From positions 391,166-423,165 of the forward strand of contig NZ_CP081495.1 in NCBI RefSeq assembly GCF_025919725.1: 32,000 nt of DNA, read 5' to 3'. Below, in pieces: positions 10,876-32,000 of the stretch. The translations under genes and the position numbers were made by a program. How positions within the stretch are numbered: the stretch's first letter is position 1; each line of letters opens with the position of its first letter. Source of the stretch: Flavobacterium agricola (lineage in GTDB: Bacteria; Bacteroidota; Bacteroidia; Flavobacteriales; Flavobacteriaceae). The notes below the pieces were generated by a model. The model did not search any database, was not told the origin of the DNA, and worked only from the letters and a program-made list of their open reading frames with translations.

Positions 10876-11780
10876 ATGCAAATTGATTTAATTGGCGATA
10901 TTCATGGCCATGCTGATGAGCTAAAAGCTTTACTTACAAAATTAGGTTATACAGCGGTTGATGAGGTTTTTTCGCATCCAACCAAAAAGTAATTTTTGTA
11001 GGTGATTATATTGACCGCGGACCTAAAATACCCGAAACATTGGCTATTGTAAAAAATATGGTGGATGCCGGCCATGCAATTGCCTTAATGGGAAACCACG
11101 AATACAATGCCATTTGTTTTAATACCTTGCATCCGGATGGTGGCTATTTACGAGCGCATGATATAAAAAATATTAGCCAGCATTACCAAACCTTGAATCA
11201 ATTCAAAAATAATCAAGCGCTGTATGATGAATATATTGCTTGGTTTAAAACGTTACCTTTGTTTTATGAAAATGAAGCGTTTTGCGCCGTTCATGCTTCT
11301 TGGGATTTTGATAGCATTGCTTTTTTAAAACAGCATGTAGTACATGCATCTTTAAGTGAAGAACAACTAATAGCTTCTGCACAATTCGAATCTCCGTATT
11401 ACTTAGCCATAGAAAAAATTTTAAAAGGCTCTGAAATTAAGTTACCCGAAGGTTATGCGTTTCAGGATAAAGATGGCAATGCACGCCAAGTAATAAGAAC
11501 CAAATGGTGGTTAAATCCGAAAGGATTAACTTATAAAGAATTTAGCGTAATTCCGATGACAAATTTGCCCGAAGTTGCCGTTGCTTACGAAGATGAAGTT
11601 TATTACAACGAAAAACATAAACCAGTTTTTTTTGGACATTATTGGTTGCAAGGTACACCAAGTTTAATTCGCGAAAACATTTGTTGTTTAGATTATAGCG
11701 TAGCAAAAAAAGGCCATTTGGTAGCTTATACGTACCAAAGCGAACAACAACTTACCCCGAAAAATTTGACTTTTGTTTAG
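10876..11780 (+). pseudogene. Metallophosphoesterase (calcineurin-like, PrpE/diadenosine tetraphosphatase type) with a frameshift near 10975-10990
   Basis: First part is ATG 10876: MQIDLIGDIHGHADELKALLTKLGYTAVDEVFSHPTKK, stop TAA 10990. The -1 frame continues KVIFVGDYIDRGPKIPETLAIVKNMVDAGHAIALMGNHEYN..., so the GDIHGH and GDYIDRGP/GNHE motifs lie in two frames. Confidence 0.85.
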
Positions 11781-11852
11781 TTTTTTATAAAAAACCACAA
11801 TTACACCGCAAAAATAATTATATTCGTTACACACAAATAATTTTAAATACGC

Positions 11853-12263
11853 ATGAAAAAACTGTTATTGATTTTTAGTACAGCTTTACTTTTATTCGCT
11901 TGTTCTTCTGATGATAATTCAGGTACACAAGTTGCAAACTTAACACCGCCAGATTGGATTTTAGGCGATTGGAGGTATTTGGTTAACGAAGGAAATGGTT
12001 CGCAATTAACACAAAATGGATTAAATTTTTTATTTAATGATGTTTGCGAAGTTTATTCAACAAATGTTGTTTGTTTTAAAAGCACGTACGGAAATGAACC
12101 TGGATTTTCTTTTACAGAATATCATAAAAACGATTCAGAATATAAGTTTTCATACACAGTAGGAGATCAAACAAAAACGTATTCATTTGTGCGTTTAGAT
12201 GGTAACAAAATTCGTCAGTCAGAAGGCGTAGATTATGACAATGCAATTTTAGAGAAAATATAA
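11853..12263 (+). CDS. Hypothetical lipoprotein
   Basis: Lipobox signal MKKLLLIFSTALLLFACSSDD; body resembles small lipocalin-like Bacteroidota lipoproteins (weak). Confidence 0.75.
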   Translation: MKKLLLIFSTALLLFACSSDDNSGTQVANLTPPDWILGDWRYLVNEGNGSQLTQNGLNFLFNDVCEVYSTNVVCFKSTYGNEPGFSFTEYHKNDSEYKFSYTVGDQTKTYSFVRLDGNKIRQSEGVDYDNAILEKI

Positions 12264-12303
12264 AGAATAGAAAGTTATCCAATTCGGATAACTTTTTTGT
12301 ATA

Positions 12304-12337
12304 AAAAAACTACCTTATTATGGTAAGGTAGTTTTTT
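12304..12337. terminator. Bidirectional terminator
   Basis: AAAAAACTACCTTA-TTATGG-TAAGGTAGTTTTTT. Confidence 0.82.
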
Positions 12338-12442
12338 AAGGGGGGAATAAGGGTAAAATTTAAAAAAACGATTTTTATTTTTATGATACTAACTTAACGA
12401 TTTTTTTTACTTGTTGTTGTGCTAAAGTATAATTTTAACATT

Positions 12443-14401: not shown

Positions 14402-14451
14402 AATTTATGTTTTTGTAATACAACAAAGTTAGCGAGCACATGCATGCAATG

Positions 14452-14859
14452 CTATTGCAAACATTTTTCGCAAATGCCTTTGGCAAAAAATTTTATTTCA
14501 TCAATTCGATAATCGGTTAAATTGTTCTGAGGTAAAATAAAATCTTCCTTGCAAGTTGTGGTTTTACAAATTTTACAATAAAAATGCAAGTGCCAATCCT
14601 GATGCGTTTGTTCATCACAATCATCATCACATAAAATATATTTGGTAGTATTGTTTTCTGGTACGCTGTGTACAAGCCCTTTTTCTTCAAAAGTTTTTAA
14701 AGTTCTGTAAATAGTTACTCGATCTGCCTTTTCAAAATAATTTTCTATTTCTGTTAAAGAAACGGCATGCTGTTGCTTGGCCAAATAATCGTAAATAAGC
14801 AAGCGCATGCTGGTTGGATTGGTATTTTTATGTAGTAGTTTTTGCTCTATGTTTTTCAT
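14452..14859 (-). CDS. Fur-family transcriptional regulator
   Basis: 'RVTIYRTLKTFEEKGLVHSV' Fur-type recognition helix plus two CxxC motifs (CKIC, CEKC). Probably an operon with the downstream P-type ATPase. Confidence 0.9.
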   Translation of the reverse strand: MKNIEQKLLHKNTNPTSMRLLIYDYLAKQQHAVSLTEIENYFEKADRVTIYRTLKTFEEKGLVHSVPENNTTKYILCDDDCDEQTHQDWHLHFYCKICKTTTCKEDFILPQNNLTDYRIDEIKFFAKGICEKCLQ

Positions 14860-15105
14860 GATTTCAAAGTTGATTTTTTTGCACTGATTAAGTTACGATT
14901 CTTTCTTTTAAAAACGATATAAACCGCGCTGTAATATTGCAAAATTGGCTTTTTAGAATCATGATTATTGTTTATTATTTTGCTATTTGTTTGCTTTATA
15001 ATAATATATGGTATTATGTTTATTGCTAAAATTATATTAATTTTAACAACTTAAATTGGGACAAAACTCATTCCCGAAAATGATAACGTTACGCTAAAAA
15101 TAAAG

Positions 15106-15810
15106 ATGAAAAAATTAGTTATTCTTGTTGTTGAAGATGAAAAATTGGTACGTGAACTTTTAATCTCATATATCAGAGAGATTTTGGGTGATATGCAGGT
15201 TGATATTATTACCAGCTCAACCTTTAGCTTGGCTAAACAATTAATACAAACCAATCAACCCGAGCTTGTTTTTTTAGATATTAGATTGCAAGATGCGAAC
15301 AGTTTTGAACAAATAGAAGAACTAAATATTAAAGATTTTAAATTGGTTTTTACAACGGCTTATTCAGAACATATGGCCGATTCTATTAACAATTTAGGTT
15401 GTTTTGGGTATTTGTTAAAACCGATGAGTTTACAAAGCGTAAAAACAATTTTTGATCGTTTTTTTGCCGAACGTGCTTTACCCGAATACAAAAAAATAAC
15501 CCTAAAAATTGCTAACAAACAAGTTTTAGTTTCAGAAAACGAAATTATTTATTGCCAAGCCGATAATAATTATTGCAACATGTTTTTTAAAGGAGAAAAG
15601 CAGCTGTTTACTAAAACCTTAAAAGAATTTGAAAAAACATTATCGCCCGATTTGTTTGTTCGTGCGCACCGATCGTATTTAGTAAATAAAAACTACATTA
15701 AAAGTTTTGATGCAGCCAACAATAAAATTCTTGTTGAAGTTGATGATGTTGCACCGATTGAAATTCCTGTTTCTGAATCACACCGTAAAAAAGTTTCCGA
15801 ATTATTTTAA
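15106..15810 (+). CDS. LytTR-family response regulator
   Basis: N-terminal receiver ('LVVEDEKLVRELL', 'PELVFLDIRL', 'YLLKPM') and C-terminal LytTR ('FVRAHRSYLVNKNYIKSF'). Confidence 0.95.
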   Translation: MKKLVILVVEDEKLVRELLISYIREILGDMQVDIITSSTFSLAKQLIQTNQPELVFLDIRLQDANSFEQIEELNIKDFKLVFTTAYSEHMADSINNLGCFGYLLKPMSLQSVKTIFDRFFAERALPEYKKITLKIANKQVLVSENEIIYCQADNNYCNMFFKGEKQLFTKTLKEFEKTLSPDLFVRAHRSYLVNKNYIKSFDAANNKILVEVDDVAPIEIPVSESHRKKVSELF

Positions 15811-18779
15811 TGCGCCATTTCCTTTCCTTTTTCTTTTTACTTTGTAGCTTTTTAACTTTAGCTCAAGATTTATATACGCGTAACATTCACGTAAATAACG
15901 GCCTGTTTTCTAACAATGTTAATAAAACTTTTGTTGACTCTGAAGGGCGTGTTTGGATAGGTTCTAGGGGAGGGCTGGCTCGTAAAATAATGGATAAGTT
16001 TGAATTACATCCGGCCGCACAAGAAAAAAAGTTTAATAATATTTTTGATATTACTGAAGACGCCCAAGGCAATATTTGGGCCGGAAGTTATGGTTTAGGC
16101 GTACTTTTACTTAGCGAAAGCGAATCGCGTATTTTTAATACCGATACCGGATTAGTTTCAGATTTTGTTCGCAATTTAATTGTATTAAATAACCGCGTTT
16201 ATGTAGGTACAAAAGATGGATTGTCAGTTATTTCGATAACCGATTTTACGATTCAAAATTTTACACCGCAAAGTAAAGATCAAAAAGATGATCGCAGCTT
16301 TGCTATTACATCAGTGTTTGAGCTGAATCAGCAAATTTACGTTTCAACCTTAAACGACGGGCTTTTTAAAATAGAACATAATAAATTGGTTTTGGTTGAT
16401 GCTTTTGCTGGGCATCGCATCAATTTTTTTAAAACTATAAATCACGAACTTTACTTTAGCTCTTCGCTCGGATTTTATAAGTTAAATCCACAAACATTTA
16501 AGCCCTTAAAAAGTTATAATTTACCCGATGTACGCGAAATGATTCCGCTAAACGGTGCTTTTTTATTGTTGCGATCAAGCATGGTCGATTTTACGGGCGG
16601 TTTGTATCAACTTAAAAACGAAACGTTAACCAATTTTAATACAAATTTTAATTTAAAATCGTTAGAATACAAATCGTTTGCGTACGATTCTGTTTTTGAT
16701 AGGCTATATATTGGCAGTAATGAAGATGGTTTATTTATTTCTGAATTAAATAATAGCATTCAGTACAATCGTAATTTTAAAGAAATAGAAGCCATGCTTT
16801 TTGCCGCTGATAAAAAGTTTATATTTCATGAAAATGGCTTATCTATTTTAAAAAATAATCAAGAAATAAAAACAATTCCTAATAGCCAATTTTTTTCGTA
16901 CCAAAAAGCCAATCCATTAAATACAGCAAACAAGCAAAAACTTTTTAAGTTACTACCTTTTTATCCTGAAGTAGAAAATTTTACATTAAAATTTTATAAA
17001 GATATTTACTTTAAAGATTCTTTTTTTTGGGTTCCAACCAATATTGGTATTTTTAAAATGGATTTAAATGGGAATTTTGTTGCCTATTTGCCTTTGCATG
17101 TGTACCATTTTTATATTCAAAATAATCAGTTGGTTGCACCAATTCCGCATAATGGTACGGTATTAATTTCCAATTTACAAACTTTAGATCATCAATATTT
17201 TTCGGATTTCGAAAACGGAAAATCACATCCGTTTACACCATTAAACGTGGTTGATATGGCCGTAACCGATTCGGCTGTATATTTTGCTTCGGCTTTAGAA
17301 GGAATTTATCAGTTTAAAAACGGAAAATTTACTTCGTGGCGAACCGAAAAATGGTTTTCTGTTAACAAAATCAAACGCATTACCATTAATTCAAAAGGGC
17401 AACTTATTGTTGTTTCTGACTTTAATGATATTTACGTTTTTAATTTAGATGATCCTAAACCAACGCTAATAAAAACAAAAGATTTTAAAAAAATAAAAGG
17501 TGCATCTACCCAATTTGTTGAAGAATTAGACGGCGTTTTATACGTAGGTACCAACTTAGGAATTAATGTTTTTTATATTGATGGCAACGAAAAAAAATAT
17601 TTTTTTATTGACCACGAACAAGGTTTTACCAATAGCGAAAAAAACACGGCAATTTCGCATCAAAACCAAATGTATATTTTAAGTTCTACCGGATATTTTT
17701 ATATAGATAACAGCTATTTTAAAAACAACCGAAACTTTACTGCTAATGTTATGTTAGCTAAATTTACTATTAACGATACCGATAAAATTGCGCAGATAAC
17801 AGATGCCGATAACATTCAGCCATTTGCATTAACTCACGATGAAAATAATATATTTATTGAGTTTTTTTTAGATAAGGTTCGTTTTCCTAACAAGCTAAGT
17901 TATTATTACCAATTGCATGAAGATGGCGAATGGATAGAAGTGCTGCATGACCGTAAAATTTATTTACCTTACTTGGCTCCGGGCGAATATAAATTGGCTT
18001 TAAAAATTATTGATAACGATTCGAGCACCGAAATTACTGAGCCAATTATTCAGTTTAAAATTAAAGAAGCTTTTTATAATACGTTGTGGTTTACCGTAAT
18101 TTGTTTGTTGGTTGCCGGTGCAATTTCGTACATCAGCTTTAGCTCGTTTAAAAAGAAAAAGAAAAAAGAAATTCAGTTTTTAGAATTAAAACATCAGGTT
18201 TTAATTTCACAATTAGATGCTCATTTTTTATTTAATATTTTAAGCGCGATTAAATATTTAAAAAGAACAGCCGATGGCCCTGCTGCCGATGAGGTAATTG
18301 ATTTATTTTCCGATTTTATTCGAAAAACCTTAGTTTTTACTAATGCTAACAAAATTACTTTAAATCAGGATATTTCATATTTAAAAAATTACGTTGATTT
18401 GGTAAATTTAGGCCGTGATGAACCTGTTGAATTTACAACCAAAATTGCAGCTGATATTAATATAGATCAGGTTGAGGTATTGCCAATTTTGATGCAACCT
18501 TTTGTAGAAAATTGTATGAAATATGCTTTTCCAGAATCTATTTCACATCCAAAAATCACTTTAATTATTTCGCGTTATCCCCAAGGGTTAAAATTTGAAT
18601 TGGTAGATAACGGCGTTGGTTTTCAGGTAGAAAAACAAGATGTAAAATCCGAAAAACAATCGCTTGGAATCAGCATTGTTGCCAACCGTTTGCAAATTCA
18701 TAATAAAATAACCAAACAAGGGCTGCATATTAGTTCAGATTCTACCGGTACAAAAGTTGAAGTTTTTTACGAACAATAA
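15810..18779 (+). CDS. LytS-type histidine kinase with N-terminal two-component propeller sensor
   Basis: Signal peptide, propeller motifs ('FVDSEGRVWIGSRGGLARK', 'DAQGNIWAGSYGLGVL'), Y_Y_Y-like region, TM segment, His-kinase 'QLDAHFLFNILSAIKYLK' and HATPase 'LPILMQPFVENCMKYAF'. Start overlaps the response-regulator stop (TAATG). Confidence 0.94.
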   Translation: MRHFLSFFFLLCSFLTLAQDLYTRNIHVNNGLFSNNVNKTFVDSEGRVWIGSRGGLARKIMDKFELHPAAQEKKFNNIFDITEDAQGNIWAGSYGLGVLLLSESESRIFNTDTGLVSDFVRNLIVLNNRVYVGTKDGLSVISITDFTIQNFTPQSKDQKDDRSFAITSVFELNQQIYVSTLNDGLFKIEHNKLVLVDAFAGHRINFFKTINHELYFSSSLGFYKLNPQTFKPLKSYNLPDVREMIPLNGAFLLLRSSMVDFTGGLYQLKNETLTNFNTNFNLKSLEYKSFAYDSVFDRLYIGSNEDGLFISELNNSIQYNRNFKEIEAMLFAADKKFIFHENGLSILKNNQEIKTIPNSQFFSYQKANPLNTANKQKLFKLLPFYPEVENFTLKFYKDIYFKDSFFWVPTNIGIFKMDLNGNFVAYLPLHVYHFYIQNNQLVAPIPHNGTVLISNLQTLDHQYFSDFENGKSHPFTPLNVVDMAVTDSAVYFASALEGIYQFKNGKFTSWRTEKWFSVNKIKRITINSKGQLIVVSDFNDIYVFNLDDPKPTLIKTKDFKKIKGASTQFVEELDGVLYVGTNLGINVFYIDGNEKKYFFIDHEQGFTNSEKNTAISHQNQMYILSSTGYFYIDNSYFKNNRNFTANVMLAKFTINDTDKIAQITDADNIQPFALTHDENNIFIEFFLDKVRFPNKLSYYYQLHEDGEWIEVLHDRKIYLPYLAPGEYKLALKIIDNDSSTEITEPIIQFKIKEAFYNTLWFTVICLLVAGAISYISFSSFKKKKKKEIQFLELKHQVLISQLDAHFLFNILSAIKYLKRTADGPAADEVIDLFSDFIRKTLVFTNANKITLNQDISYLKNYVDLVNLGRDEPVEFTTKIAADINIDQVEVLPILMQPFVENCMKYAFPESISHPKITLIISRYPQGLKFELVDNGVGFQVEKQDVKSEKQSLGISIVANRLQIHNKITKQGLHISSDSTGTKVEVFYEQ

Positions 18780-18858
18780 TTAAAAGCTGTGCTTACTCAG
18801 TTTTTTATGTGGTTCACCAAATATAAAAGTACAACTTCTGGTTTATAAATAATTTTAT

Positions 18859-18887
18859 GCCGTTACAATATTGTAACGGCTTTTTTT
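18859..18887 (+). terminator. Rho-independent terminator after the histidine kinase
   Basis: GCCGTTACAA-TA-TTGTAACGGC followed by a T7 run. Confidence 0.85.
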
Positions 18888-18896
18888 ATTATACCA

Positions 18897-20615
18897 ATGG
18901 CAGTAACTTTTTATCCAGAAGAACAAGCGATTGCGTTTGTTGAAAATCAAATTTATACCCCAGAACAAACCCATTTAAAAGGAGAATGGATGATTTACCG
19001 AGAATTAAAACAAGCGTTAAGCAGCAGTAAAGATTCTTGGTACGTGTGGCATAATTATCATTCGGTAATTAAAGAAAATCACGAAGAATTAGGAAAGGTT
19101 GAAACCGAAATTGATTTTATTATTTTAAGTAAATACGGGCTTTTAGTTTTAGAAGTTAAAGGAGGCAAAATTGTTATTGCCAACGACAAATTTTATTGCC
19201 AAACAGCAAACCAAGAACTATCTGAAATTCAGAATCCGTTTATTCAAGCTCAAAAAAGCAAATATGTGCTTTTAAATCAGTATTTACAGCAATTTAAAAA
19301 CATTTTGGTAACGTATGCGGTTGCATTTCCATCGCTAGCTGTTGCTTTAAATCATCCAAAATACAACGAAAAGGCAATTTATAGTAAATATACCAAAGAT
19401 TATACGTTTGCAGATATTGAACAATTTATTGTTTACAACCTCAAACAATCAGCCCAAAATTTACAACAAACCAATCGGTATTTTCCAGAAAACTTGTCGG
19501 ATGCAGTAATGGCATCGGTAGCCAAAAGGTTTAATGTGAATTTATCTGATGCCAATGTTTTTGAATCTTTTAATGTTGATTTTTGGGCGCATACCGAAAG
19601 TTTTAAAATTATTGATGCCTTGCAAGAAAATCCCCGTATCATGGTACAAGGCGATCCCGGAACCGGAAAAACAACTTTAGCTTTGGCTTATGCCGAAAAA
19701 AACAAACAATTTTCGGGCTTGTACGTGTGTTGGAATAAATTATTAAAAACCAGCAATGCATTAAAATTTAAAACCCGTGGGTTAGATGTTGATGTGATAA
19801 GTTATTACGATTTTCTGCTTCAACATTTACCTAATTTAACAGTTGTTCAAGCCAATACATTTTCTTACGAACAATTTGGGCAAGCTATGCAAAACGCTAT
19901 AACGAATTATTTAGCCCAACAAGGTAAAACGTACGATTATATTATTGTTGATGAAGCGCAAGATTTGTTTGATCGAAATCTAGATTATTTTATTGATAAA
20001 ATGTGCGTAACGGGTAAAGGTTTAACCCAAGGTCGATCGTTGCTTTTGTATGATTTAAAACAAGGTTTTGATGCCGAAAAAAGAGAAGTTGATGAATTTG
20101 AGTTTCTGTTAAAACAATATTACACCCATTATCAATTAAACGGAAATAAGCGCAGTATTGTAAACGAAGAGTTGCAAAACTTTGCTTTAGATGTAAGTTA
20201 TCAACCTTTAGATGTTTTAACACCAACTTATTATAACAATAAAAATGCTGTACTATATAAACCAGTAAATGGTGCTAAAGAATTTAAAAAATTAGTGAAT
20301 TTGTATAAAATGAATGTTTTAAAAGCAGATTCATCCTTGTCTGAAAGCGATATTGTTTTGTTGTTTCAATCATCAATATTAAAAAACTACCCACAAATTG
20401 TAAGGGTTTTAAAAGAATTAGAAATTGAAGAATTGACTGAACTTAATTTTGAAACCAAGTATTTAAAATATTCTACTCCAATTAAATTTAAAGGTTTAGA
20501 AAAGAAAAATGTTGTTTTGGTTGTTTCTTCACCCAATGCAACAAGTAAGTTTGAATGGTACATGGGCATAACGCGTGCCGTACAAACAATTCATATGGTG
20601 CATTTAAATTTTTAA
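18897..20615 (+). CDS. NERD nuclease-related domain fused to a UvrD/SF1-like helicase/ATPase
   Basis: N-terminus 'GEWMIYRELKQAL...ETEIDFIILSKYGLLVLEVKGGKI' (NERD), Walker A 'VQGDPGTGKTTLAL', Walker B 'YIIVDEAQDLF', terminal SF1 motif 'MGITRAVQTIHM'. Confidence 0.85.
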   Translation: MAVTFYPEEQAIAFVENQIYTPEQTHLKGEWMIYRELKQALSSSKDSWYVWHNYHSVIKENHEELGKVETEIDFIILSKYGLLVLEVKGGKIVIANDKFYCQTANQELSEIQNPFIQAQKSKYVLLNQYLQQFKNILVTYAVAFPSLAVALNHPKYNEKAIYSKYTKDYTFADIEQFIVYNLKQSAQNLQQTNRYFPENLSDAVMASVAKRFNVNLSDANVFESFNVDFWAHTESFKIIDALQENPRIMVQGDPGTGKTTLALAYAEKNKQFSGLYVCWNKLLKTSNALKFKTRGLDVDVISYYDFLLQHLPNLTVVQANTFSYEQFGQAMQNAITNYLAQQGKTYDYIIVDEAQDLFDRNLDYFIDKMCVTGKGLTQGRSLLLYDLKQGFDAEKREVDEFEFLLKQYYTHYQLNGNKRSIVNEELQNFALDVSYQPLDVLTPTYYNNKNAVLYKPVNGAKEFKKLVNLYKMNVLKADSSLSESDIVLLFQSSILKNYPQIVRVLKELEIEELTELNFETKYLKYSTPIKFKGLEKKNVVLVVSSPNATSKFEWYMGITRAVQTIHMVHLNF

Positions 20616-20675
20616 AAAGACACAAATTGTCTTTTGTAATATATAGATTTGCCTTAAACCTAAAAACTTATAAAA

Positions 20676-21035
20676 ATGAAAAATAACGAAAACCAAAAAG
20701 CTTTAGAAATGTTTGATCAATTCAAACAAAAAAAAGTAAACGATCAAGACATTCATGATGCCGAAGCAAAAGCTAAAAACTTAGGTAAAATTGTAAAAGA
20801 TTTTAGATTGCTTATCGCTATGTTTAAAGATGGCATAAGCGGTGTTTATAGCATTTCGGGTTTAACTTTAGCTACGCTTGCAGGTGCAATTTTGTACGTT
20901 GTTTCACCAATTGATGCAGTGCCTGATTTTATTCCTTTTGTTGGTTGGTTAGACGATGTTGCTGTAATTACTTTTGTATTAGCTAACTTAAATTCAGAAA
21001 TCAGTAAATACAAAAAGTTTAAAAAAATAGAATAA
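20676..21035 (+). CDS. YkvA/DUF1232 family small membrane protein
   Basis: 'LAGAILYVVSPIDAVPDFIPFVGWLDDVAVI' hallmark motif. Confidence 0.93.
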   Translation: MKNNENQKALEMFDQFKQKKVNDQDIHDAEAKAKNLGKIVKDFRLLIAMFKDGISGVYSISGLTLATLAGAILYVVSPIDAVPDFIPFVGWLDDVAVITFVLANLNSEISKYKKFKKIE

Positions 21036-23298: not shown

Positions 23299-24135
23299 AT
23301 TTTTTAGTGCTTAAAATTTCATGAATAAGTAAAGCTTTTTTGCGCGTGGTTCCCCACATAAATTCTCCAATTTTGCCCGAAGCTTGTATAATACGATGGC
23401 ACGGTATTAAAACAGCAATTGGATTTTTACCAATAGCTGTACCAATGGCGCGTGCTAATTTTTTTCTTGAATTTGTTCAGCTATTTCACCGTAGGTATAA
23501 ATATTTTTATAAGGTAATAAAACCAATTGTTTCCAAACTTGTTCTTGCAATGGGCTTGCATGCACTAAAACCTGAAGCGGAACATCGTTTTCATGGTTAT
23601 TAATTTTTTCTAAAGCTTCTAAATGTACATTTTTAGATTTTTGTACAAATTGTGCTTTTTCAAAATAAGTTTTCAAAAGATTTTCGGCCTGATTGTCATC
23701 TTCTAAAAAATAAATCAAGCACACGTAATCGCTAATTGAGGCAATTAAAACCTTTCCGAAAAGCGAATGAAAAATGTTGTAATAAATTTCTAAATCGGCA
23801 TATTTATTTTTAACCGCCTCCGCATTAAAAAAGTTTAATTGTACGCTGGCAATAAAATCGGTTTGATTTAGGTTTTTGCTAAACAAGTTGTTCTGAAACA
23901 AATATTTAGGCAACGCATTTTTATTTATGTAGTTTAGTAAAGAAACAAAGTCAGAAAGTTCTATGTTTCCCCATTTTTCTAAATAAAAAGCAAGTTCAGT
24001 AAACCTTGTTTTTGCATCTTTTTCGGTAATAAAAAATTTTTTATCGGCTGCAATTTCGTTCGAGTAAAAATCGATAACCTTACTTACATAGGTATAACTT
24101 GCATAATTAAGATCTATATTCGTGCCCATTAGCAA
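23299..24135 (-). pseudogene. Methylated-DNA--[protein]-cysteine S-methyltransferase (Ada/MGMT C-terminal type), broken reading frame
   Basis: ORF 23455..24135 ends '...LVLLPYKNIYTYGEIAEQIQEKN*' at an A7 run. The -1 frame continues 'LARAIGTAIGKNPIAVLIPCHRIIQASGKIGEFMWGTTRK' with the PCHR active-site motif, and a second shift near 23338-23341 would restore 'ALLIHEILSTKK*' (stop 23299-23301). Confidence 0.85.
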
Positions 24136-24229: not shown

Positions 24230-25264
24230 TTGTCCAACAACACAACTATTATGTACAAATCAGTAATTCGACCGTATTTATTTAAAAAGGATCCCGAACA
24301 AGCGCATTATTTAACTTTTAATTGGTTAAAAAAGGTTTCTGCCATTCCTGGCGTTCCGGCTATGTTGCGTGCCAAGTTTTTAGTAGAAGATCCGCGTTTA
24401 GAACGCGAAGTTTTTGGTATTAAATTTAAAAATCCGGTAGGTTTAGCTGCAGGATTAGATAAAGATGCCAATGCCTTTCAGGAATTATCTAATTTAGGAT
24501 TTGGTTTTATTGAAATCGGAACCATAACTCCGAAACCGCAAGACGGAAATCCAAAAAAACGTTTGTTTCGTTTAATAGAAGATTCTGGAATTATTAACCG
24601 AATGGGATTTAATAACGGTGGGGTAGAAGCTGCTGTAAAACGTTTACAAAAAAATAAAAATGTATTAATTGGTGGTAATATTGGTAAAAATAAAATTACC
24701 CCGAACGAAGATGCCGTAAACGATTATTTAATTTGTTTTGATGCTTTGTTTGATGTGGTTGATTATTTTGTGGTAAACGTAAGTTCGCCAAACACGCCTA
24801 ATTTGCGTGCTTTACAAGATAAAGAACCTTTGATGCATTTGTTGCAAACCTTGCAAAATAAAAATTTTACAAAAGCAAAAGCCAAACCTATTTTGTTAAA
24901 AATTGCGCCCGATTTAACTAACGAACAATTGTTAGATATTATTGATATTGTTGCAACAACTAAAATAGCAGGCGTAATTGCAACCAATACAACCATTTCG
25001 CGCGATGGATTAATTTCTAAAAATCAGAGTGAAATAGGTGGTTTATCTGGTAAACCGCTAACCAAACGTGCTACCGAGGTTATTAAATTTTTATCAGATA
25101 ATAGCAACAAAGCTTTCCCAATTATTGGAGTTGGCGGTATTCATTCGGTTGAAGATGCGTTAGAAAAGTTTGAGGCAGGCGCAAGCTTAATTCAGCTTTA
25201 TACGGGTTTTATTTACGAAGGACCACAATTAATTAAAGATATCAATCAAGCGTTATTAAAATAA
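24230..25264 (+). CDS. pyrD: Quinone-dependent dihydroorotate dehydrogenase
   Basis: '[38 protein letters not shown]', 'NRMGFNNGG', '[11 protein letters not shown]', 'IGVGGI'. ORF start at 24230 is non-ATG-like; the real start may be [11 protein letters not shown]. Confidence 0.96.
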
Positions 25265-25304
25265 CGCTTGAATTTTCTATATTTACAATTCTATTCTATT
25301 AAAA

Positions 25305-26183
25305 ATGCTAAATACAGAAAAAAAAGCGGTTAAAATTATTGAATGTCCACGCGATGCCATGCAAGGCATTAAAGCTTTTATTCCTACAGATGCTAAGGTG
25401 CGTTACATTCAATCATTACTTCGTTGTGGTTTTGATACGTTAGATTTTGGAAGTTTTGTTTCTCCAAAAGCTATTCCACAAATGCAAGATACGGCTCAAG
25501 TTTTAGCACAATTAGATTTATCACAAACCACAACAAAATTGCTGGCTATTATTGCCAATACGCAAGGTGCGATTGCCGCAGCTCAGCACGCGCAAATTCA
25601 ATATTTAGGTTTTCCGTTTTCAATCTCAGAAAACTTTCAGATGCGTAATACGCACAAAACCATTGCACAATCTATTGTTACCTTACAAGAAATTTTAGAA
25701 ATTGCTCATAAGGCAGATAAAGAAGTTGTAGCTTATTTATCTATGGGATTCGGAAACCCGTACGGTGATCCGTGGAATGTAGATATTGTAGCAGATTGGA
25801 CAGCTAAATTAGCGCAAATGGGGGTGAAAATAATTTCTTTATCAGATACCGTTGGAAGCTCAACACCAGAAGTAATAGATTATTTATTTTCAAACTTAAT
25901 TCCTCAATACCCAAATCTTGAATTTGGAGCCCATTTACATACTACCAAAGATAAATGGTTTGAAAAAGTTGATGCTGCCTATAAAGCTGGTTGTATTCGT
26001 TTTGATGGCGCTATAAAAGGTTACGGCGGATGTCCAATGGCTAAAGATGATTTAACCGGAAATATGCCAACCGAAAAAATACTGTCTTATTTTACGGCCG
26101 AAAAAGCGCCAACTAATGTAAAATTAATGAGCTTTGAAGCCGCTTACAACGAAGCTTTATTAGTATTTAATCAGTACCATTAA
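25305..26183 (+). CDS. Hydroxymethylglutaryl-CoA lyase
   Basis: HMGL-like fold: 'IECPRDAMQG', 'FGSFVSPKAIPQM', 'SLSDTVGSSTPEVI', 'HLHTTKDKW', 'FDGAIKGYGGCPMAKD'. Confidence 0.9.
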   Translation: MLNTEKKAVKIIECPRDAMQGIKAFIPTDAKVRYIQSLLRCGFDTLDFGSFVSPKAIPQMQDTAQVLAQLDLSQTTTKLLAIIANTQGAIAAAQHAQIQYLGFPFSISENFQMRNTHKTIAQSIVTLQEILEIAHKADKEVVAYLSMGFGNPYGDPWNVDIVADWTAKLAQMGVKIISLSDTVGSSTPEVIDYLFSNLIPQYPNLEFGAHLHTTKDKWFEKVDAAYKAGCIRFDGAIKGYGGCPMAKDDLTGNMPTEKILSYFTAEKAPTNVKLMSFEAAYNEALLVFNQYH

Positions 26184-26232
26184 TAAAAACCAAATAATAT
26201 TTTTATTTTAAACAATTTAAGTTTAAATTTGT

Positions 26233-27729
26233 ATGCAATTCAACAACAATTGCAACATGAAAGCACACACAACAAAAATCATCGGAGAAGGTCTAACATA
26301 CGATGATGTTCTTTTAATTCCAAATTATTCCGAAGTACTTCCACGCGAAGTTTCCACACAAACTAAATTCTCAAAAAACATTACTTTAAACGTTCCTATT
26401 GTTTCTGCAGCAATGGATACGGTAACAGAAAGTGCAATGGCAATTGCTATGGCGCAAGAAGGTGGTATTGGTGTTTTACATAAAAATATGACAATTGAGC
26501 AGCAAGCTGCAGAAGTTAGAAAAGTAAAACGTGCCGAAGCAGGAATGATTATGGATCCGGTAACTTTAAGTTTACACCATAAAGTAGGTGATGCAAAAAA
26601 TGCAATGAAAGAACATAGCATCGGCGGAATTCCTGTTGTAGACGAAAATAATATTTTAAAAGGGATCGTTACCAATCGTGATTTACGATTCGAAAAAAAT
26701 AACGAACGTGCCATAACAGAAGTTATGACTACGCAAAATTTGGTTACTGCGCCACAAGGAACAACTTTAGCGCAAGCCGAAGAAATTCTTCAAAAAAATA
26801 AAATCGAAAAATTACCAGTAATTGATGCAAACAACAAATTAGTTGGCTTAATTACGTTTCGTGACATTACTAAAATCACACAAAAACCAAACGCCAACAA
26901 AGATTCATTTGGTAGATTACGTGTAGCTGCAGCATTGGGTGTAACAGCTGATGCGGTAGAACGTGCCGAAGCTTTGGTTAACGCTGGTGTTGATGCAGTA
27001 ATTATTGATACGGCTCACGGACATACAAAAGGCGTGGTAGATGTACTTAAAAAAGTAAAAGCTGCTTTTCCTAGTTTAGATGTGGTGGTTGGTAATATTG
27101 CTACGCCAGAAGCTGCCTTGTATTTAGCAGAAAGTGGAGCTGATGCGGTAAAAGTAGGAATAGGACCAGGTTCTATTTGTACTACTCGCGTTGTTGCTGG
27201 GGTTGGTTTTCCTCAGTTTTCTGCAGTTTTAGAAGTTGCAGCAGCTTTAAAAGGTACTGGAGTTCCTGTAATTGCTGATGGTGGTGTACGTTATACCGGT
27301 GATATTCCTAAAGCGATTGCTGCCGGAGCAGATTCTGTTATGTTAGGATCTATGTTAGCAGGAACAAAAGAATCGCCAGGTGAGACTATTATTTACGAAG
27401 GACGTAAATTTAAATCTTATCGCGGGATGGGTTCTGTAGAAGCGATGCAACACGGTTCTAAAGACAGATATTTTCAAGATGTTGAAGATGATGTTAAAAA
27501 ATTGGTTCCAGAAGGAATTGTTGGTCGCGTAGCATATAAAGGCGAATTAAACGAATCTATGTTACAATTTATAGGTGGTTTACGTGCCGGAATGGGGTAT
27601 TGCGGTTCTGCATCTATTCAAGAACTACAAGAAAAAGGACGATTTGTTCGCATTACAACAAGTGGAATTAACGAATCTCACCCTCATGATGTTACTATAA
27701 CAAAAGAAGCACCAAACTATTCAAGATAA
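26233..27729 (+). CDS. guaB: Inosine-5'-monophosphate dehydrogenase
   Basis: '[15 protein letters not shown]', CBS pair, '[18 protein letters not shown]', '[11 protein letters not shown]', C-terminal '[28 protein letters not shown]'. Confidence 0.97.
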
Positions 27730-27759
27730 TAAAAAAGCTACCCAAGGGTAGCTTTTTTT
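27645..27759 (+). repeat. Direct repeat copy 1: guaB 3' end plus terminator
   Basis: Matches 28804-28918 at offset 1159 with 4 mismatches (27648 T/C, 27663 T/C, 27672 C/A, 27717 C/T). Confidence 0.97.
27731..27759. terminator. guaB terminator (bidirectional)
   Basis: AAAAAAGCTACCC-AA-GGGTAGCTTTTTTT. Confidence 0.88.
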
Positions 27760-27761
27760 TT

Positions 27762-27781
27762 CTTTCTTTCTTTCTTTCTTT
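27762..27781. repeat. Tetranucleotide microsatellite (CTTT)5
   Basis: C residues at 27762, 27766, 27770, 27774 and 27778, each followed by TTT. Confidence 0.95.
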
Positions 27782-27803
27782 CTGTTTTTGTATACCTAAT
27801 AAC

Positions 27804-28655
27804 CTAAATAAATAAATAAATAAATGTATTTGCTGAAAGATACTCATCTTCTGTATTTACACTAATAGGAGTGCCTGAGCCGCCGGTTGAAACAGAAAAC
27901 GTATGTGTATGAGCTCCAGCGCTATTAATTGTAAATGCAGAGTTAACTAGGCTAGTAGTTGCCCAAGTTTGCCCACCAGATGAAAATCCTGAAGAATTCA
28001 CAGCTCCAGTAGTATAATTATTGTTAGTTGTAGTGTGTGTATGAGCACCGTTAGAACTTGTAGTACCTGACATGGTAAAATTAGGAATATTTGCTCTGGT
28101 TATACTTATAGATTTCGCAGTACTATTGCCTCCTACTGTATTTACTTCTTTACTACTAACTTGTTTAATTACTCTTCCGTTAGCGTTTGGTAAATTAGTT
28201 GTAAAACCAAGTAAGTTGGCATTGTTTTTTGATACATTAGTTAAAGTACTTATTTGGCGTCCATCAAGCAAATACCAACCGTCGTGATCTATTTTTAAAG
28301 CACTATATTTAATGTCACCTAAATTAAATTTAGAACTTGTTTGTGTTAGTTTTTGCCAAACATTTCCATCAAAAAAATAATAGCCATTTTCGTTAATATG
28401 AATTGCTTTTCCTATTTGTTCTCCACTTAGAGCATCAGATACATAAACTAATGTTGATGTACTAATATTTTCCATATTTTGTGCTCTTTCTCTATCTACT
28501 CTAGGAATTAAAATACCATCAACTTGACTGCTTGATCCAGTTGGATTTATTGCTTGAATATCTAAAGTTGCTTTTGGGGTTGTAGTTACTATACCCACCT
28601 GAGAATACGTTGTTAAACTAAATAAGCAACAACATAAAATAATCATTTTTTTCAT
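27804..28655 (-). CDS. Phage tail-collar-like / tail-fibre-like secreted protein
   Basis: Signal peptide; N-terminal 'TTPKATLDIQAINPTGSSSQVDGILIPRV'; 'GDIKYSALKIDHDGWYLLDGRQ' collar-type segment; Gly/Ser/Thr/His-rich 'SNGAHTHTT...GAHTHTFS'; C-terminal 'YLSANTFIYL' typical of collar-domain proteins. Confidence 0.75.
   Translation of the reverse strand: MKKMIILCCCLFSLTTYSQVGIVTTTPKATLDIQAINPTGSSSQVDGILIPRVDRERAQNMENISTSTLVYVSDALSGEQIGKAIHINENGYYFFDGNVWQKLTQTSSKFNLGDIKYSALKIDHDGWYLLDGRQISTLTNVSKNNANLLGFTTNLPNANGRVIKQVSSKEVNTVGGNSTAKSISITRANIPNFTMSGTTSSNGAHTHTTTNNNYTTGAVNSSGFSSGGQTWATTSLVNSAFTINSAGAHTHTFSVSTGGSGTPISVNTEDEYLSANTFIYLFI
27806..27825. repeat. Tetranucleotide microsatellite (AAAT)5 within the 3' end of the tail-collar-like gene
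   Basis: Five perfect AAAT units, reading as 'TFIYLFI' C-terminal codons on the minus strand. Confidence 0.95.
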
Positions 28656-28803
28656 AAAATCATTTTTTTATGTACAACGGCATTTCGTTTTTTTTATTAT
28701 GTTATATGCTGTATTGTTTTTTTAAGTTTTTTTTAAATATTTATTAAATAAATAACGTTTTTTGAATTTTGTTAGGATTACTTTTTTACCAGCTATAAGA
28801 AAA

Positions 28804-28918
28804 TGTCCGCATTACAACAAGCGGAATTAAAGAATCTCACCCTCATGATGTTACTATAACAAAAGAAGCACCAAATTATTCAAGATAATAAAAAAGCTAC
28901 CCAAGGGTAGCTTTTTTT
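28804..28918 (+). repeat. Direct repeat copy 2: orphan guaB 3' end plus terminator
   Basis: Still reads [27 protein letters not shown] then AAAAAAGCTACCCAAGGGTAGCTTTTTTT; 111/115 identical to copy 1. Confidence 0.97.
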
Positions 28919-29802
28919 AATTTCTTTCTGTTTTTGTAGGCATCTCCAATTATATTTAAGGTTACACCCAATATAATACAACTAATTCCTAAAGCTAGGT
29001 TTAACGAGAAAAATTCATCAAACAACAATACGCTAATGCTAACGGCAACAACCGGCTCAAAAGCCCCTAAAATAGATGTTGCGGTAGAACCAATATATTT
29101 AATAGCAAAAACAAGAGCTAAGCTAGAAATTACAGTAGTAACTAAAGCAAATAAAGCCAAGTTTAAACCTAAAGAAAATGTTGGAATTTCAAAGTTTTTA
29201 TTGCTGTCGGTTAGTAATTTTACGGCATAATATACGCTTGTAAATAAAAAAGAATAAAAGGTTAAAACCAATCCGTTTAAGTTTTTTACGTTTGATTTAC
29301 TTACCGTAACAATGTACAACGCATAACCTAAAGCGCTTATAAAAATAATAAATAAGCCAATGCCATTTATGGCAAACTTACCATTTTGTAAACTAAGTAA
29401 AAGTACGCCAATAAGTGTAAAAACAATGGCAAATATTGAAGTGCTGTTTAATTTTTCTTTAAAAACCAAAGCCATTATTATAGCAACCAATAACGGATAA
29501 ATAAATAATAAGGTTGATGCAACCCCTGCATTTAAATAATCGTAAGCTAAAAATAACGAATCTGATGATATGCCGTAAAACATACCTAACACAGCCAAAG
29601 TTAAAATTTGGTTTCGTTCAATATTAAACGATTTTTGTTTCAATAACAAATAACTTCCTAGTAAAAGTGCAGCAAAAGCAAACCGATAAAATAACGTGGT
29701 ATCAATACCAAACCCCGCTTTTTTTATAGGTAAAACAAAAAGCGGAATTAATCCGTACGAAACGGAAGATAATAGCCCTAAAAAATAACCTTTAAACCTC
29801 AT
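28897..29802 (-). CDS. EamA/DMT-family transporter
   Basis: Ten hydrophobic segments; 'KKAGFGIDTTLFYRFAFAALLLG', 'STATSILGAFEPVVAVSISVLLFDEFFSLNLALGISCIILGVTL'. The final codons overlap repeat copy 2. Confidence 0.92.
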   Translation of the reverse strand: MRFKGYFLGLLSSVSYGLIPLFVLPIKKAGFGIDTTLFYRFAFAALLLGSYLLLKQKSFNIERNQILTLAVLGMFYGISSDSLFLAYDYLNAGVASTLLFIYPLLVAIIMALVFKEKLNSTSIFAIVFTLIGVLLLSLQNGKFAINGIGLFIIFISALGYALYIVTVSKSNVKNLNGLVLTFYSFLFTSVYYAVKLLTDSNKNFEIPTFSLGLNLALFALVTTVISSLALVFAIKYIGSTATSILGAFEPVVAVSISVLLFDEFFSLNLALGISCIILGVTLNIIGDAYKNRKKLKKATLG

Positions 29803-29955
29803 AATAATTCAATTCTAAATCAGGAACGTTTAAATTGCAATTATCATATAACGTTTAACACGATTGCTGCAATTTTTGGCAAAAGTAACTTTTATCTGTT
29901 AATAATTCGATAAATATTGATGGGATAAAACCATTCATTTTTCTAACTTTGTGAT

Positions 29956-30132
29956 ATGAAAAAATTATATTGGCCTATTTTATTTGTTGTAATGATTTGG
30001 GCGCTTATGGACCAAGCTTCAGAAAATCCGAATAAAATTTTACAAATAGTTGTAGTTGTCATATTTTTTTATGCCATGATGAAATTAATGGCTAAAACAC
30101 CTAATAATAAAAATAAAGAAAATGAATTTTGA
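29956..30132 (+). CDS. Small 58-aa membrane protein
   Basis: Not in the ORF track. MKKLYWPILFVVMIWALMDQASENPNKILQIVVVVIFFYAMMKLMAKTPNNKNKENEF*, two hydrophobic segments, overlaps the start of the Smr gene by 11 nt. Confidence 0.65.
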   Translation: MKKLYWPILFVVMIWALMDQASENPNKILQIVVVVIFFYAMMKLMAKTPNNKNKENEF

Positions 30133-30664
30133 AAAAGGAGATAAAGTTGCTGTTTTAGATGATGATATTACGGGCTTTGTAACCGGAATTAAAAAAGATA
30201 AAATAGTTGTAAATGTTGATGATTTTGAGTTGGAATTTAATACTTCAGAATTAATTAAAATTGCTGATGAACCTGCGCGTTTTTTTGCTAACGTTTCGGT
30301 GCAACAAGTTTTAGCCGAAAAAGCAGATCCAAAAAGAAAACATGTTGTAAAAGATAAAGCATCAAAAAAAGAACCTTTTTCTATTCCTTACGATTTACAT
30401 ATCGAAAAATTAGTTAAAGATTTTTCACGAATGAGCAATCATGATATTTTGACCATACAATTAGATACCGCGCGCCATCATTTAGAACATGCTATTCGAA
30501 ACAGAATTCCGCGTATTGTTTTAATTCACGGCGTAGGTGAAGGGGTTTTAAAAACCGAGCTTGATTTTATGCTAAGCCGTTATAATAATGTAACTTTTGA
30601 AGATGCTAACTATCAGAAATATGGCATCGGAGCAACACAAGTTTACATTAAACAAAATGTATAA
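30122..30664 (+). CDS. Smr-domain protein (MutS2-like C-terminal domain)
   Basis: 'YDLHIEKLVKDF...HHLEHAIRNRIPRIVLIHGVGEGVLKTEL' Smr motifs (DLH, HGxG). Confidence 0.88.
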   Translation: MNFEKGDKVAVLDDDITGFVTGIKKDKIVVNVDDFELEFNTSELIKIADEPARFFANVSVQQVLAEKADPKRKHVVKDKASKKEPFSIPYDLHIEKLVKDFSRMSNHDILTIQLDTARHHLEHAIRNRIPRIVLIHGVGEGVLKTELDFMLSRYNNVTFEDANYQKYGIGATQVYIKQNV

Positions 30665-30667
30665 ATT

Positions 30668-30706
30668 AAAAAAACACCTCAAAAAATATTTTTTGAGATG
30701 TTTTTT
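30668..30706. terminator. Probable terminator between convergent genes
   Basis: AAAAACACCTCAAAAAATATTTTTTGAGATGTTTTTT, one internal mismatch. Confidence 0.7.
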
Positions 30707-30730
30707 ATTATAAATAGGAAAAATTTGGGG

Positions 30731-32000
30731 TTAAATTTTCTGAACAAGTAAATTTGTTCCTGCTTTTAAAATTTTGCCGTTAGAACTTGCATTGTCTAAA
30801 CGCACATATAAACTATAAACATCGTATATGTTTGTAATGTTTATAATTCTTGATAAAGTGACGGTTTTTATTTCATCTTTAGAAATAGAAGTTTTTACAG
30901 AACAATCATCAACTTTGTTTGTATATTTTCCTAAAAAAAACTCTAATCTACCGTTGTTTCCTTTGGTTCCTTCTAATGTAATGGTGTACGTAACTAAGTA
31001 ATTTCCTGGTGTTTTTACTCTAAATCCATTTTCGAAAGGTTCAATACCAAGGTTTACTTTGTTTGTAAAATTTATTTTATATAAGGATGCATCATTAACT
31101 GCAAATTCATCACTTGATAAAGTAAAATCACCTATCGTTTTTTCTAAATTTTGCCATGAAGCTTTTCCGTTTGCATCAGAAGTAAGTACTTTTCCAGCAC
31201 CTTGCGATCCATCAACTATTTTAATTGTTCCTGCAACATGTAATTTTTCATCCGGTTTACTTGTACCAATTCCAATTTTAGTACTTTCCTTGTTGTTTCC
31301 AATAACGATAGCATTGTCTTGATCAGTTGTTGCATTAAAACCAATAGCTGTAGATTGATGATTGTTTGCTTGCGCATTATTTCCAATCGCTAATGAATTT
31401 AATGCTTGCGCTTTAGCTTCTTGTCCAATAGCTAATGAATTATCTCCTTTTGCGTAAGCTTTATTTCCTATGGCATATGCTTGATATCCGATTGAATTTG
31501 TTTCGTTCCCGATTGCCATACCTGAACTACCTGTTGTGCTAGAATTGTTACCAAAAACCAATGCATTATTTGCTGTAACTTGGTTTTTATTTCCTACAGC
31601 AATTGCTTGTTGTCCGCTTGCAGAAGATTCATTACCAAGTGTATAAGCATTATTGTTGCTTGCATTTGAACCTTTACCGATAGCGTACGATTGATAACCA
31701 CTTGCATTAGCTTGGTTACCAATAGCAAACGTATCGTTGCTTCTAGCTTTGGCTAAGTAGCCAATAGCGTAACTTATATAACCACTTGCTTGCGCTTCTT
31801 TACCAATGGCGTAAGATTCATTTGCACTTGTAATTGCTTTATGACCTAAAGCGTAGGAATATTGAGTTTTAGCTTGTGCTTCAGACCCAATAGCAAATGC
31901 ATGGTTGGTATTTGTTTTGGCCGCATAGCCGATAGCTACAGAATGCATTCCTTCGGTTTGAGATTCAAACCCTAAATTTATAGTGCCGTGTACTCCAAAT
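30731..32000 (-). CDS. YadA-head / trimeric-autotransporter-like surface protein, 5' end beyond window
   Basis: Many '(F/Y)AIGxxAxAxG' repeats, then 'KIGIGTSKPDEKLHVAGTIKIVDGSQGAGKVLTSDANGKASW'. The frame stays open upstream of the ORF-track Met (...GVHGTINLGFESQTEGMHSV), so the gene is truncated by the window edge. Confidence 0.85.
   Translation of the reverse strand, partial: FGVHGTINLGFESQTEGMHSVAIGYAAKTNTNHAFAIGSEAQAKTQYSYALGHKAITSANESYAIGKEAQASGYISYAIGYLAKARSNDTFAIGNQANASGYQSYAIGKGSNASNNNAYTLGNESSASGQQAIAVGNKNQVTANNALVFGNNSSTTGSSGMAIGNETNSIGYQAYAIGNKAYAKGDNSLAIGQEAKAQALNSLAIGNNAQANNHQSTAIGFNATTDQDNAIVIGNNKESTKIGIGTSKPDEKLHVAGTIKIVDGSQGAGKVLTSDANGKASWQNLEKTIGDFTLSSDEFAVNDASLYKINFTNKVNLGIEPFENGFRVKTPGNYLVTYTITLEGTKGNNGRLEFFLGKYTNKVDDCSVKTSISKDEIKTVTLSRIINITNIYDVYSLYVRLDNASSNGKILKAGTNLLVQKI
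31230..32000 (-). repeat. Protein-level ~14-aa head repeats (about 42 nt period)
   Basis: Repeating units such as SYAIGYLAKARSNDTFAIGNQANASGYQSYAIGKGSNASNN. Confidence 0.85.

Follow-up and report, generated by a model that had tools for sequence, protein, structure and literature searches.

Duplication of the guaB 3' end around a one-gene insert in Flavobacterium agricola, a candidate scar of additive recombination

Introduction

Prophages and genomic islands integrate into the 3' ends of housekeeping genes, as do e14 or phage 21 in icd and, by fda in Streptococcus thermophilus, the cis-mobilizable elements (CIMEs), which have no integrase of their own; elements that integrate at gene termini (e14/icd) are classically recognised by direct repeats of a gene 3' end whose differences are mostly synonymous. 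Here we analyse a structure of comparable appearance in Flavobacterium agricola: in a stretch of 32,000 nucleotides (contig NZ_CP081495.1, positions 391,166 to 423,165; hereafter the window), the 3' end of guaB, the gene for inosine monophosphate (IMP) dehydrogenase, is directly repeated on either side of an insert carrying a single gene (hereafter the cargo gene). As in the icd and CIME type, the gene tail is duplicated, the differences are mainly synonymous and a pseudo-tail lies at the far end. In contrast, no integrase is found at guaB (in the window, or in 80 guaB loci by a motif screen), the insert is a 1-kb, one-gene fragment, the boundaries vary among cases, and the repeat enters the neighbouring gene.

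Two other kinds of recombination come close. Campbell-type integration and homology-facilitated illegitimate recombination (HFIR) are likewise additive, placing an insertion between direct duplications of a homologous segment with one illegitimate joint and no dedicated recombinase, and E. coli experiments with single crossovers of circular DNA yielded duplications of 109-950 bp (PMC3240628). Unlike these, the present case is read from a natural genome, its donor was not found, and the homology must span two convergent gene ends. The same topology has been proposed for the displacement of rhs C-termini (PMC2935791) and of type VI secretion system (T6SS) effector modules (PMC5361080). There, as in contact-dependent inhibition (CDI) systems, the module that comes in brings part of the conserved gene with it, the former 3' end is moved downstream as a detached fragment, and the process recurs at one locus with different cargo. 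However, the variable part in those systems is the gene's own toxic C-terminus with its immunity gene, whereas at guaB the tail of a housekeeping enzyme is simply restored, the cargo is an unrelated neighbour, and there are no arrays of displaced tails. Transposition also flanks an insert with direct repeats of target sequence, but these measure 2-15 bp, against 138 bp in the window.

Results

The guaB/EamA junction is duplicated around a single inserted gene

The guaB gene (26257..27729, plus strand) is intact and encodes a protein of 490 aa (Pfam IMPDH, E=7e-161) that is 100% identical to the F. agricola IMP dehydrogenase P0121. Its last 85 coding nucleotides and its stop codon fall within the first copy of a direct repeat. 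Positions 27645-27759 and 28804-28918 are identical at 111 of 115 sites (blastn E=4e-53), as had been noted in an earlier reading of the same sequence (hereafter the original prediction), and alignment places the limits slightly wider, at 27642-27792 for copy 1 (151 bp) and 28801-28938 for copy 2 (138 bp). The gap in length is explained by a simple-sequence tract that reads T9+(TTTC)6 in copy 1 and T7-AA-(TTTC)2 in copy 2; past this tract the copies match again in CTTTCTGTTTTTGTA, just as originally described. Both copies contain the guaB tail (RITTSGI[N/K]...). The duplicated segment comprises, in order, the last 85 coding nucleotides and stop of guaB, an 8-nt spacer region, a terminator, a T-run and TTTCTTTCTGTTTTTGTA; in copy 1, which is joined to guaB on its left, these appear as the guaB tail, stop, terminator, expanded (TTTC)n and CTGTTTTTGTA. 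Four substitutions separate the copies, all in the guaB-coding part and 4/4 at codon position 3. The two copies, 97% identical and 1.16 kb apart, form the sole long high-identity direct repeat across the 32-kb window, and no degenerate leftward continuation of this repeat was found when looked for.

Immediately beyond guaB lies a bidirectional intrinsic terminator (27731..27758) with a 12-bp stem, an A-run and a T-run, a folding energy of -17.7 kcal/mol (z=-5.6) and a hit on both strands in the terminator scan; it is predicted to serve both guaB on the plus strand and the inserted gene on the minus strand. A second bidirectional terminator, recovered by folding and by the terminator scan (28890..28917), overlaps the stop codon region of the next gene, an EamA-family drug/metabolite transporter (DMT) gene of 301 aa on the minus strand (28897..29802; Pfam EamA 2.5e-30; orthologs at 81%), whose C-terminus, ...GDAYKNRKKLKKATLG before the stop, is encoded over the terminator. 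Inside the guaB/EamA junction lies a perfect palindrome with 13-nt arms. Because the 42 nt at the end of the duplicated segment are the last 14 codons of EamA, coding in copy 2, the duplicated unit is the whole convergent guaB/EamA junction. Copy 2 consists of a displaced, non-functional guaB tail starting from guaB nt 1386 (28801-28888) and of the functional last 14 EamA codons (28897-28938).

Between the copies is an insert of 1008 bp (27793..28800), absent from the empty-site relatives L171 and L179 described below, with a GC content indistinct from that of its flanks. As anticipated, it contains a single minus-strand, tail-collar-like gene, an open reading frame (ORF) of 852 nt (27804..28655), accompanied only by 145 bp of AT-rich DNA upstream of it (28656..28800), the right end of which is the junction with copy 2 (J2). 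This upstream region came in along with the cargo gene; a canonical Bacteroidota -7 motif was not found in it, nor was an inverted-repeat switch. The product is a protein of 283 aa with a signal peptide and a nearest homolog at 46% identity, and it is full length, aligning over 99% of homologs of 286-293 aa with 27 invariant columns that include two HxH pairs. Its assignment to PTL_trimer (PF26696), a tail-collar or tail-fibre-like family, comes from the precomputed Pfam tag on the identical protein P0001 and on all close homologs, whereas our local copy of Pfam gave no match for the cargo protein. PHROG tail families match it at 3e-07, and its homologs are named 'microcystin-dependent protein' or 'phage tail collar domain' in their source records. 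Fold and PDB matches are weak (Foldseek E of at least 5e-3) and nearly all to phage tail fibres, and are indicative only, given a poor structure model (predicted local distance difference test score, pLDDT, of 56). The nearest homologs come from Chryseobacterium (43-46%) or from metagenomes, and no F. agricola paralog was present among the matches listed.

The 3' end of the cargo ORF carries a (TTTA)5 tract (27805..27824, minus strand) where the family consensus implies (TTTA)3, and this expansion turns the C-terminus from ...FIYLG(E/Q/Y) into ...FIYLFI. Three units would read ...FIYLGY and then stop, while four would give a read-through of about 40 codons. At the junction of copy 1 and the insert this tract adjoins the (TTTC)6 microsatellite (27759..27782), which has two units in copy 2 and one in the empty-site contig L171; the paired microsatellites may be a slippage-prone contingency sequence or merely a site of local instability.

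Close relatives retain a single-copy junction

Relatives with guaB at 92-94% identity were found in the protein database, and their contigs were inspected. In L171 (guaB 94%), guaB is followed by one terminator and a directly convergent EamA gene, with no insert. In L179 and L178 (EamA 81%), guaB and its terminator face EamA and a gene of 116 aa on the opposite strand, beyond which a small ORF and an Smr gene follow in the same orientation as in the window. One single segment of L179 aligns with both window copies, copy 1 aligning to the single-copy segment of L179 and L171, and copy 2 being colinear with the single-copy junction of the same two contigs. Genomes in which guaB and EamA converge on one copy and lack the insert, for which the original prediction had proposed to look, are therefore at hand.

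Other members of the clade hold different content at this position. In five of them (L163-165, L172 and L173; guaB 92%), synteny with the window is kept on both sides, and only a 114-aa gene separates guaB from the small ORF and Smr; in L169 and L170 the same slot holds an Na+/H+ exchanger gene (kef). Since the junction is single-copy in L171, L179 and L178 and these other clade members carry other genes, the F. agricola arrangement is derived, by insertion together with a 138-bp duplication. The small ORF (58 aa) and the Smr-domain gene (29956..30664, plus strand), which show 79-83% amino-acid identity to L179 and about 80% nucleotide identity to L163, form the conserved right border of the variable slot. 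In the window, the 114/116-aa gene of L163/L179 is absent, and just 137 bp (29804-29940) lie between EamA and the small ORF.

The end of EamA is itself conserved: its C-terminus reads ...DAYKNRKK... in L171, ...GDAYKNRKKAKKATHG before the stop in L179, and ...GDAYKNRKKLKKATLG in the window, and EamA therefore overlapped the guaB terminator already in the ancestor. The idea that the last 13 codons of EamA are a 'borrowed' guaB flank was rejected, as L171 and L179 show this tail to be native to EamA; distant homologs were uninformative on this point. The EamA product, like the cargo protein, is 100% identical to an F. agricola entry; look-ups by exact protein match returned nothing for either product. 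A metagenome scan with EamA returned homologs at 38-45% only, most of them of gut origin. Outside the immediate clade, the nearest homologs of EamA are from Weeksellaceae (Empedobacter 62-66%, Chryseobacterium 52-55%). The guaB gene is typically Flavobacterium, unlike both slot genes, whose nearest homologs beyond the clade belong to Weeksellaceae.

The flank of guaB is a variable slot with parallel insertions

We compared 80 species-level guaB loci of 13 kb each (about 1 Mb in total) among the matches listed, in which the closest guaB relative from the contig scan stood at 89% and F. agricola itself did not appear. The upstream synteny pyrD-HMGL-guaB is conserved across these loci, and none of the 80 has an EamA, Smr or cassette homolog downstream of guaB. 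In many of them guaB converges with kef about 70 bp away, and in others 0.9-3 kb separate the two. Clustering of the downstream ORFs gave 137 clusters, 108 of them singletons (Pfam was run on 123 downstream ORFs, for the best 25 of 155 families). The downstream flank of guaB is a hypervariable slot across the genus Flavobacterium.

Two of these loci carry structures parallel to that of the window. In L021, a 462-aa RCC1 protein with a type IX secretion system (T9SS) sorting domain (Pfam) lies between guaB and a pseudo-tail of 192 nt that corresponds to guaB nt 1282-1473 and is about 85% identical to it (7282-7473 / 9023-9213). In L031, a 114-aa small membrane protein with a DUF202 domain precedes a decayed pseudo-tail (guaB nt 1283-1345 and 1460-1537), the repeat spanning about 255 bp (7283-7537 / 8208-8346). 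In the roughly 1 Mb of guaB loci, dispersed direct repeats of this size class number just nine, of which three are guaB tails. L021 and L031 are not closely related, and the pseudo-tail in each resembles the guaB of that same locus, yet their left breakpoints lie within 1 nt of each other. The repeats start at guaB nt 1386 in the window and at 1282/1283 in L021 and L031, and end at +63 in the window, at the stop codon in L021 and at +64 in L031. The sequences just inside the junctions of the three inserts are mutually unrelated; the three insertions are thus independent, and common descent of the inserts was rejected on this ground.

These comparisons support the original prediction in part. 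Its general reading, an insertion at a gene terminus that pushed the old tail to the far side, holds, and the different cargo that it had suggested seeking between guaB-tail repeats is present in L021 and L031, in other Flavobacterium lineages. The hotspot that it had offered as one of three options gains support from this recurrence, since guaB-tail repeats bracket different cargo genes in L021 and L031, and from the variable slot at large. That surface-protein genes are what is swapped there holds only loosely: it agrees with the secreted, tail-fibre-like protein of the window and the T9SS-secreted RCC1 protein of L021, but not with the DUF202 membrane protein of L031 or the ordinary genes found elsewhere. 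The two remaining options, a minimal mobile unit and the remnant of a larger deleted element (taken here as one with an integrase), are disfavoured alike by inserts that are unrelated, by boundaries that differ, and by the lack of a recombinase in the window or, by motif screen, in the 80 loci.

No recombinase accompanies the insert

Pfam searches of all window ORFs of at least 100 aa gave no integrase or transposase domain, in agreement with what had first been seen by eye, and recovered efflux, transport, regulatory and metabolic genes only. A screen for the box I/box II motifs of tyrosine recombinases, a crude one whose controls were bare motif strings, found none in the window or in the 80 guaB loci. 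The ends of the insert are unrelated by eye, and no terminal inverted repeats pairing them were among the 25 pairs listed by an inverted-repeat scan of 25000-31000. A transposon or insertion sequence is thus not what we find: the window has no transposase, the insert has no terminal inverted repeats, and the duplication measures 138 bp. Neither is an integron cassette, as there is no integrase, the repeats consist of a gene tail plus terminator, and the cargo gene has 145 bp of its own upstream DNA. No tRNA genes were found when looked for, and a search of Rfam returned zero matches.

Genes of the cargo family do adjoin a tyrosine recombinase in L174, a metagenomic context, and in L175. In L174 (3545-7789), as in L175, three PTL_trimer genes stand in tandem beside the recombinase, and a perfect 20-nt inverted repeat (4823-4842 / 5043-5062 in L174) encloses 200 bp just upstream of the first of them. 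This looks like the layout of a phase-variable invertible promoter for a PTL_trimer surface family, and not like that of an integrative element. In L176 a triple PTL_trimer array occurs without any recombinase.

Origin of the duplication

Any model has to account for foreign DNA flanked by a direct duplication of 138 bp of resident sequence, for boundaries that vary from case to case, and for the lack of a recombinase. We favour, at roughly even odds (a probability of about 0.5), a recombinase-independent, additive (duplicative) insertion downstream of guaB, by one homologous crossover and one illegitimate joint. In the ancestor, guaB and EamA would have converged on one shared bidirectional terminator, as they still do in L171 and L179. 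A foreign fragment of 1 kb with one PTL_trimer gene would then have been added through a homologous crossover inside the segment formed by the guaB tail, the terminator and the EamA tail, and through an illegitimate joint at J2 (28800|28801, at guaB nt 1386), either by Campbell-type single crossover of a small circle or by HFIR of a linear fragment. Either route would duplicate the homologous segment; as a consequence guaB, the new gene and EamA would all retain a terminator and an undamaged 3' end, with a dead guaB tail on the far side. Selection may have acted as a filter: because guaB and EamA overlap one terminator, only insertions that duplicate the junction would be tolerated, leaving both residents and the newcomer with an intact end and terminator. 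The duplication, the insert, the ancestral empty site, the lack of recombinase genes and the recurrence at guaB in other lineages are observed; the crossover, as well as the order and number of steps, we infer.

Several observations are consistent with additive integration. The repeat lengths of 138 bp in the window, 192 bp in L021 and about 255 bp in L031 fit within the range of 109-950 bp seen experimentally. In L021 the guaB stop codon is exactly where the repeat ends, with the RCC1 cargo starting 26 nt further on, while in L053 an RCC1 ortholog (58% amino-acid identity) is native at the same position and orientation without a pseudo-tail; a donor with such a native guaB-RCC1 adjacency would yield the L021 structure, and the DNA beyond the second copy in L021 matches what natively flanks guaB in its relative L012. 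The substitutions add a weaker signal. With L179 and L163 as outgroups (T,T,C,T), three of the changes are derived in copy 2 and a single synonymous one in copy 1, while none of the 56 sites at codon positions 1 and 2 of the window repeat has changed. If the duplication arose in place, and copy 1 stayed under purifying selection while copy 2 decayed neutrally, the third-position pattern has P about 0.04; in L021, 8 of 13 differences between copies are at codon position 3, and window and L021 combined give P about 0.04, the numbers being small. The pattern is a hint that most of the divergence of copy 2 took place within a working guaB. The 4/4 third-position pattern had been taken as strong evidence of a foreign copy, and was downgraded to this P about 0.04 once the changes were polarised with outgroups and selection on copy 1 was modelled.

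Other points weigh against additive integration. The donor must already have had the cassette attached to the 138-bp junction, 42 nt of EamA tail included, and because of this requirement the model calls for two rare events, against one for a one-step capture. Neither a donor nor a native guaB-cassette adjacency was found (nearest cargo homolog 46%; 0 of 80 guaB loci), and the codon-position signal, at four sites, could be due to chance or to a later allelic replacement of guaB. The spacers of L021 and L053, which had seemed clearly homologous, proved on shuffling not to be significantly similar. Finally, a random illegitimate joint does not predict the breakpoint shared by L021 and L031 (guaB nt 1282/1283), and there may be a fragile site or a site preference near guaB nt 1282. 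One could go further and take the guaB tail and terminator as a preferred landing pad for repeated single-gene addition by a site-preferring process, either a trans-acting recombinase that escaped recognition or a fragile site near nt 1282, a view that we consider rather improbable. If it were true, the duplicated tail would let cassettes loop out as small circles, in a recombinase-light, housekeeping-gene-anchored form of cassette exchange.

The alternative that we take most seriously, although only tentatively, is a one-step illegitimate capture, in which a break or template switch at the guaB/EamA junction was repaired with a foreign 1-kb fragment, and both ends were over-copied or the polymerase returned upstream, leaving a 138-bp 'target-site duplication' and two illegitimate joints. 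Requiring one event, it is the most parsimonious account of the window; a segment that spans both convergent gene ends and a palindromic terminator fits the survival of only those events that preserve 3' ends, the three inserts are unrelated with no donor adjacency found for the window, and the common breakpoint of L021 and L031 could mark a fragile site. Yet target duplications of 140-250 bp are not, to our knowledge, a routine product of any documented bacterial mechanism. Moreover, random capture would not predict an L021 repeat that ends at the stop codon with its cargo placed as in the native L053 arrangement, and neutral decay of copy 2 predicts changes at positions 1 and 2, where 0/56 are seen (P about 0.04).

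What remains of a site-specific integrative element (e14/icd or CIME-like), whose attP supplied a replacement guaB tail and which later lost its integrase and most of its cargo by deletion, or whose integrase acts in trans from elsewhere in the genome, is an unlikely reading and is the least supported of these three mechanisms. The 138-bp direct repeat does contain the 3' end of its target gene, as attL and attR would, and a tyrosine recombinase adjoins the cargo family in one metagenomic context (L174), but that recombinase sits beside an invertible-promoter layout. With no recombinase in the window and none in the motif screen of the 80 guaB loci, no intact element is known at this site; the three independent cases all lack one and differ in their repeat boundaries, and the inclusion of 42 nt of the neighbouring EamA would be odd for an attP. 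A scenario of two unrelated steps, in which the 138-bp junction was first duplicated in tandem by a neutral event and foreign DNA was then inserted at the novel joint, would draw on tandem duplications being frequent and on a duplicated junction leaving both genes intact; this sequence of events is very improbable, as the later insertion would have to land exactly on the duplication joint, and a tandem 138-bp duplication without insert, its intermediate, occurs in none of the relatives compared. That the second copy is an assembly artefact is barely credible: the copies differ by four substitutions and two simple-sequence tracts and are set 1.16 kb apart within unique sequence, the genuine guaB-EamA junction seen in L171 and L179 is colinear with copy 2, and parallel structures occur in the independent assemblies L021 and L031.

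We thus see in the locus no new mobile element but a clear, if rather ordinary, scar left by additive recombination; the sort of scar is known, and its recurrence at guaB adds modest further interest. It offers a clean natural example of gene addition beside an essential conserved gene without a mobile-element enzyme, with the filled site, the empty site and parallel cases at hand, in which the tail of the conserved gene supplies the homology and its duplication protects both neighbours. If this pattern is general, housekeeping pseudo-tails could be easily searched markers of recent additive gene gain, and could point as well to hot spots of recombination and to metastable cassettes open to loss or amplification via their flanking repeats. 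In F. agricola, the 97%-identical repeats are predicted to be substrates for RecA-dependent loss or amplification of the cassette, and the PTL_trimer surface gene stands out as a recent, probably foreign and potentially unstable acquisition.

Other features of the window and of related loci

A second lineage-specific block of about 10.8 kb (11040-21035) separates in the window a DUF6642 gene from a carbonic anhydrase gene, which are adjacent in L163-L165. It contains two hypothetical genes and genes for a P-type ATPase, a Fur-family regulator, a LytTR response regulator and a histidine kinase, a NERD-helicase and a DUF1232 protein, and has no long flanking repeat. An ORF of 226 aa without a Pfam match (23455-24135, minus strand) stands in place of the 277-282-aa DNA_binding_1 (methyltransferase-like) gene of the relatives, and may be truncated or frameshifted, ending soon after ...YGEIA.... 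At 2 kb from the cassette, a minus-strand gene (30731-31948) encodes 405 aa with YadA-head repeats (Pfam 5e-32) and no recognisable anchor domain; judged from its sequence, its product is a second adhesin-like surface protein nearby.

Further kinds of occupants are found downstream of guaB in other genomes. Among the 92-94% relatives, L161 (8413-8945) and L166-L168 carry a GC-rich, repeat-like sequence (GGGCGT..CC...GTCGGGCTTTYCG..CTCGC) after the guaB terminator, and because several assemblies break at this sequence, it suggests a multi-copy element. In L028, a 63-bp direct repeat (97%; 7710-7772 / 9454-9516) that is not a gene tail surrounds two small genes about 240 bp downstream of guaB. 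Finally, in L022, a gene for an IS200-like Y1 transposase of the REP-associated tyrosine transposase (RAYT) type lies directly 3' of guaB (1972-2720), ringed by six copies of a hairpin resembling repetitive extragenic palindromes (REP; AGAGACGCGC...GCGCGTCTTT).

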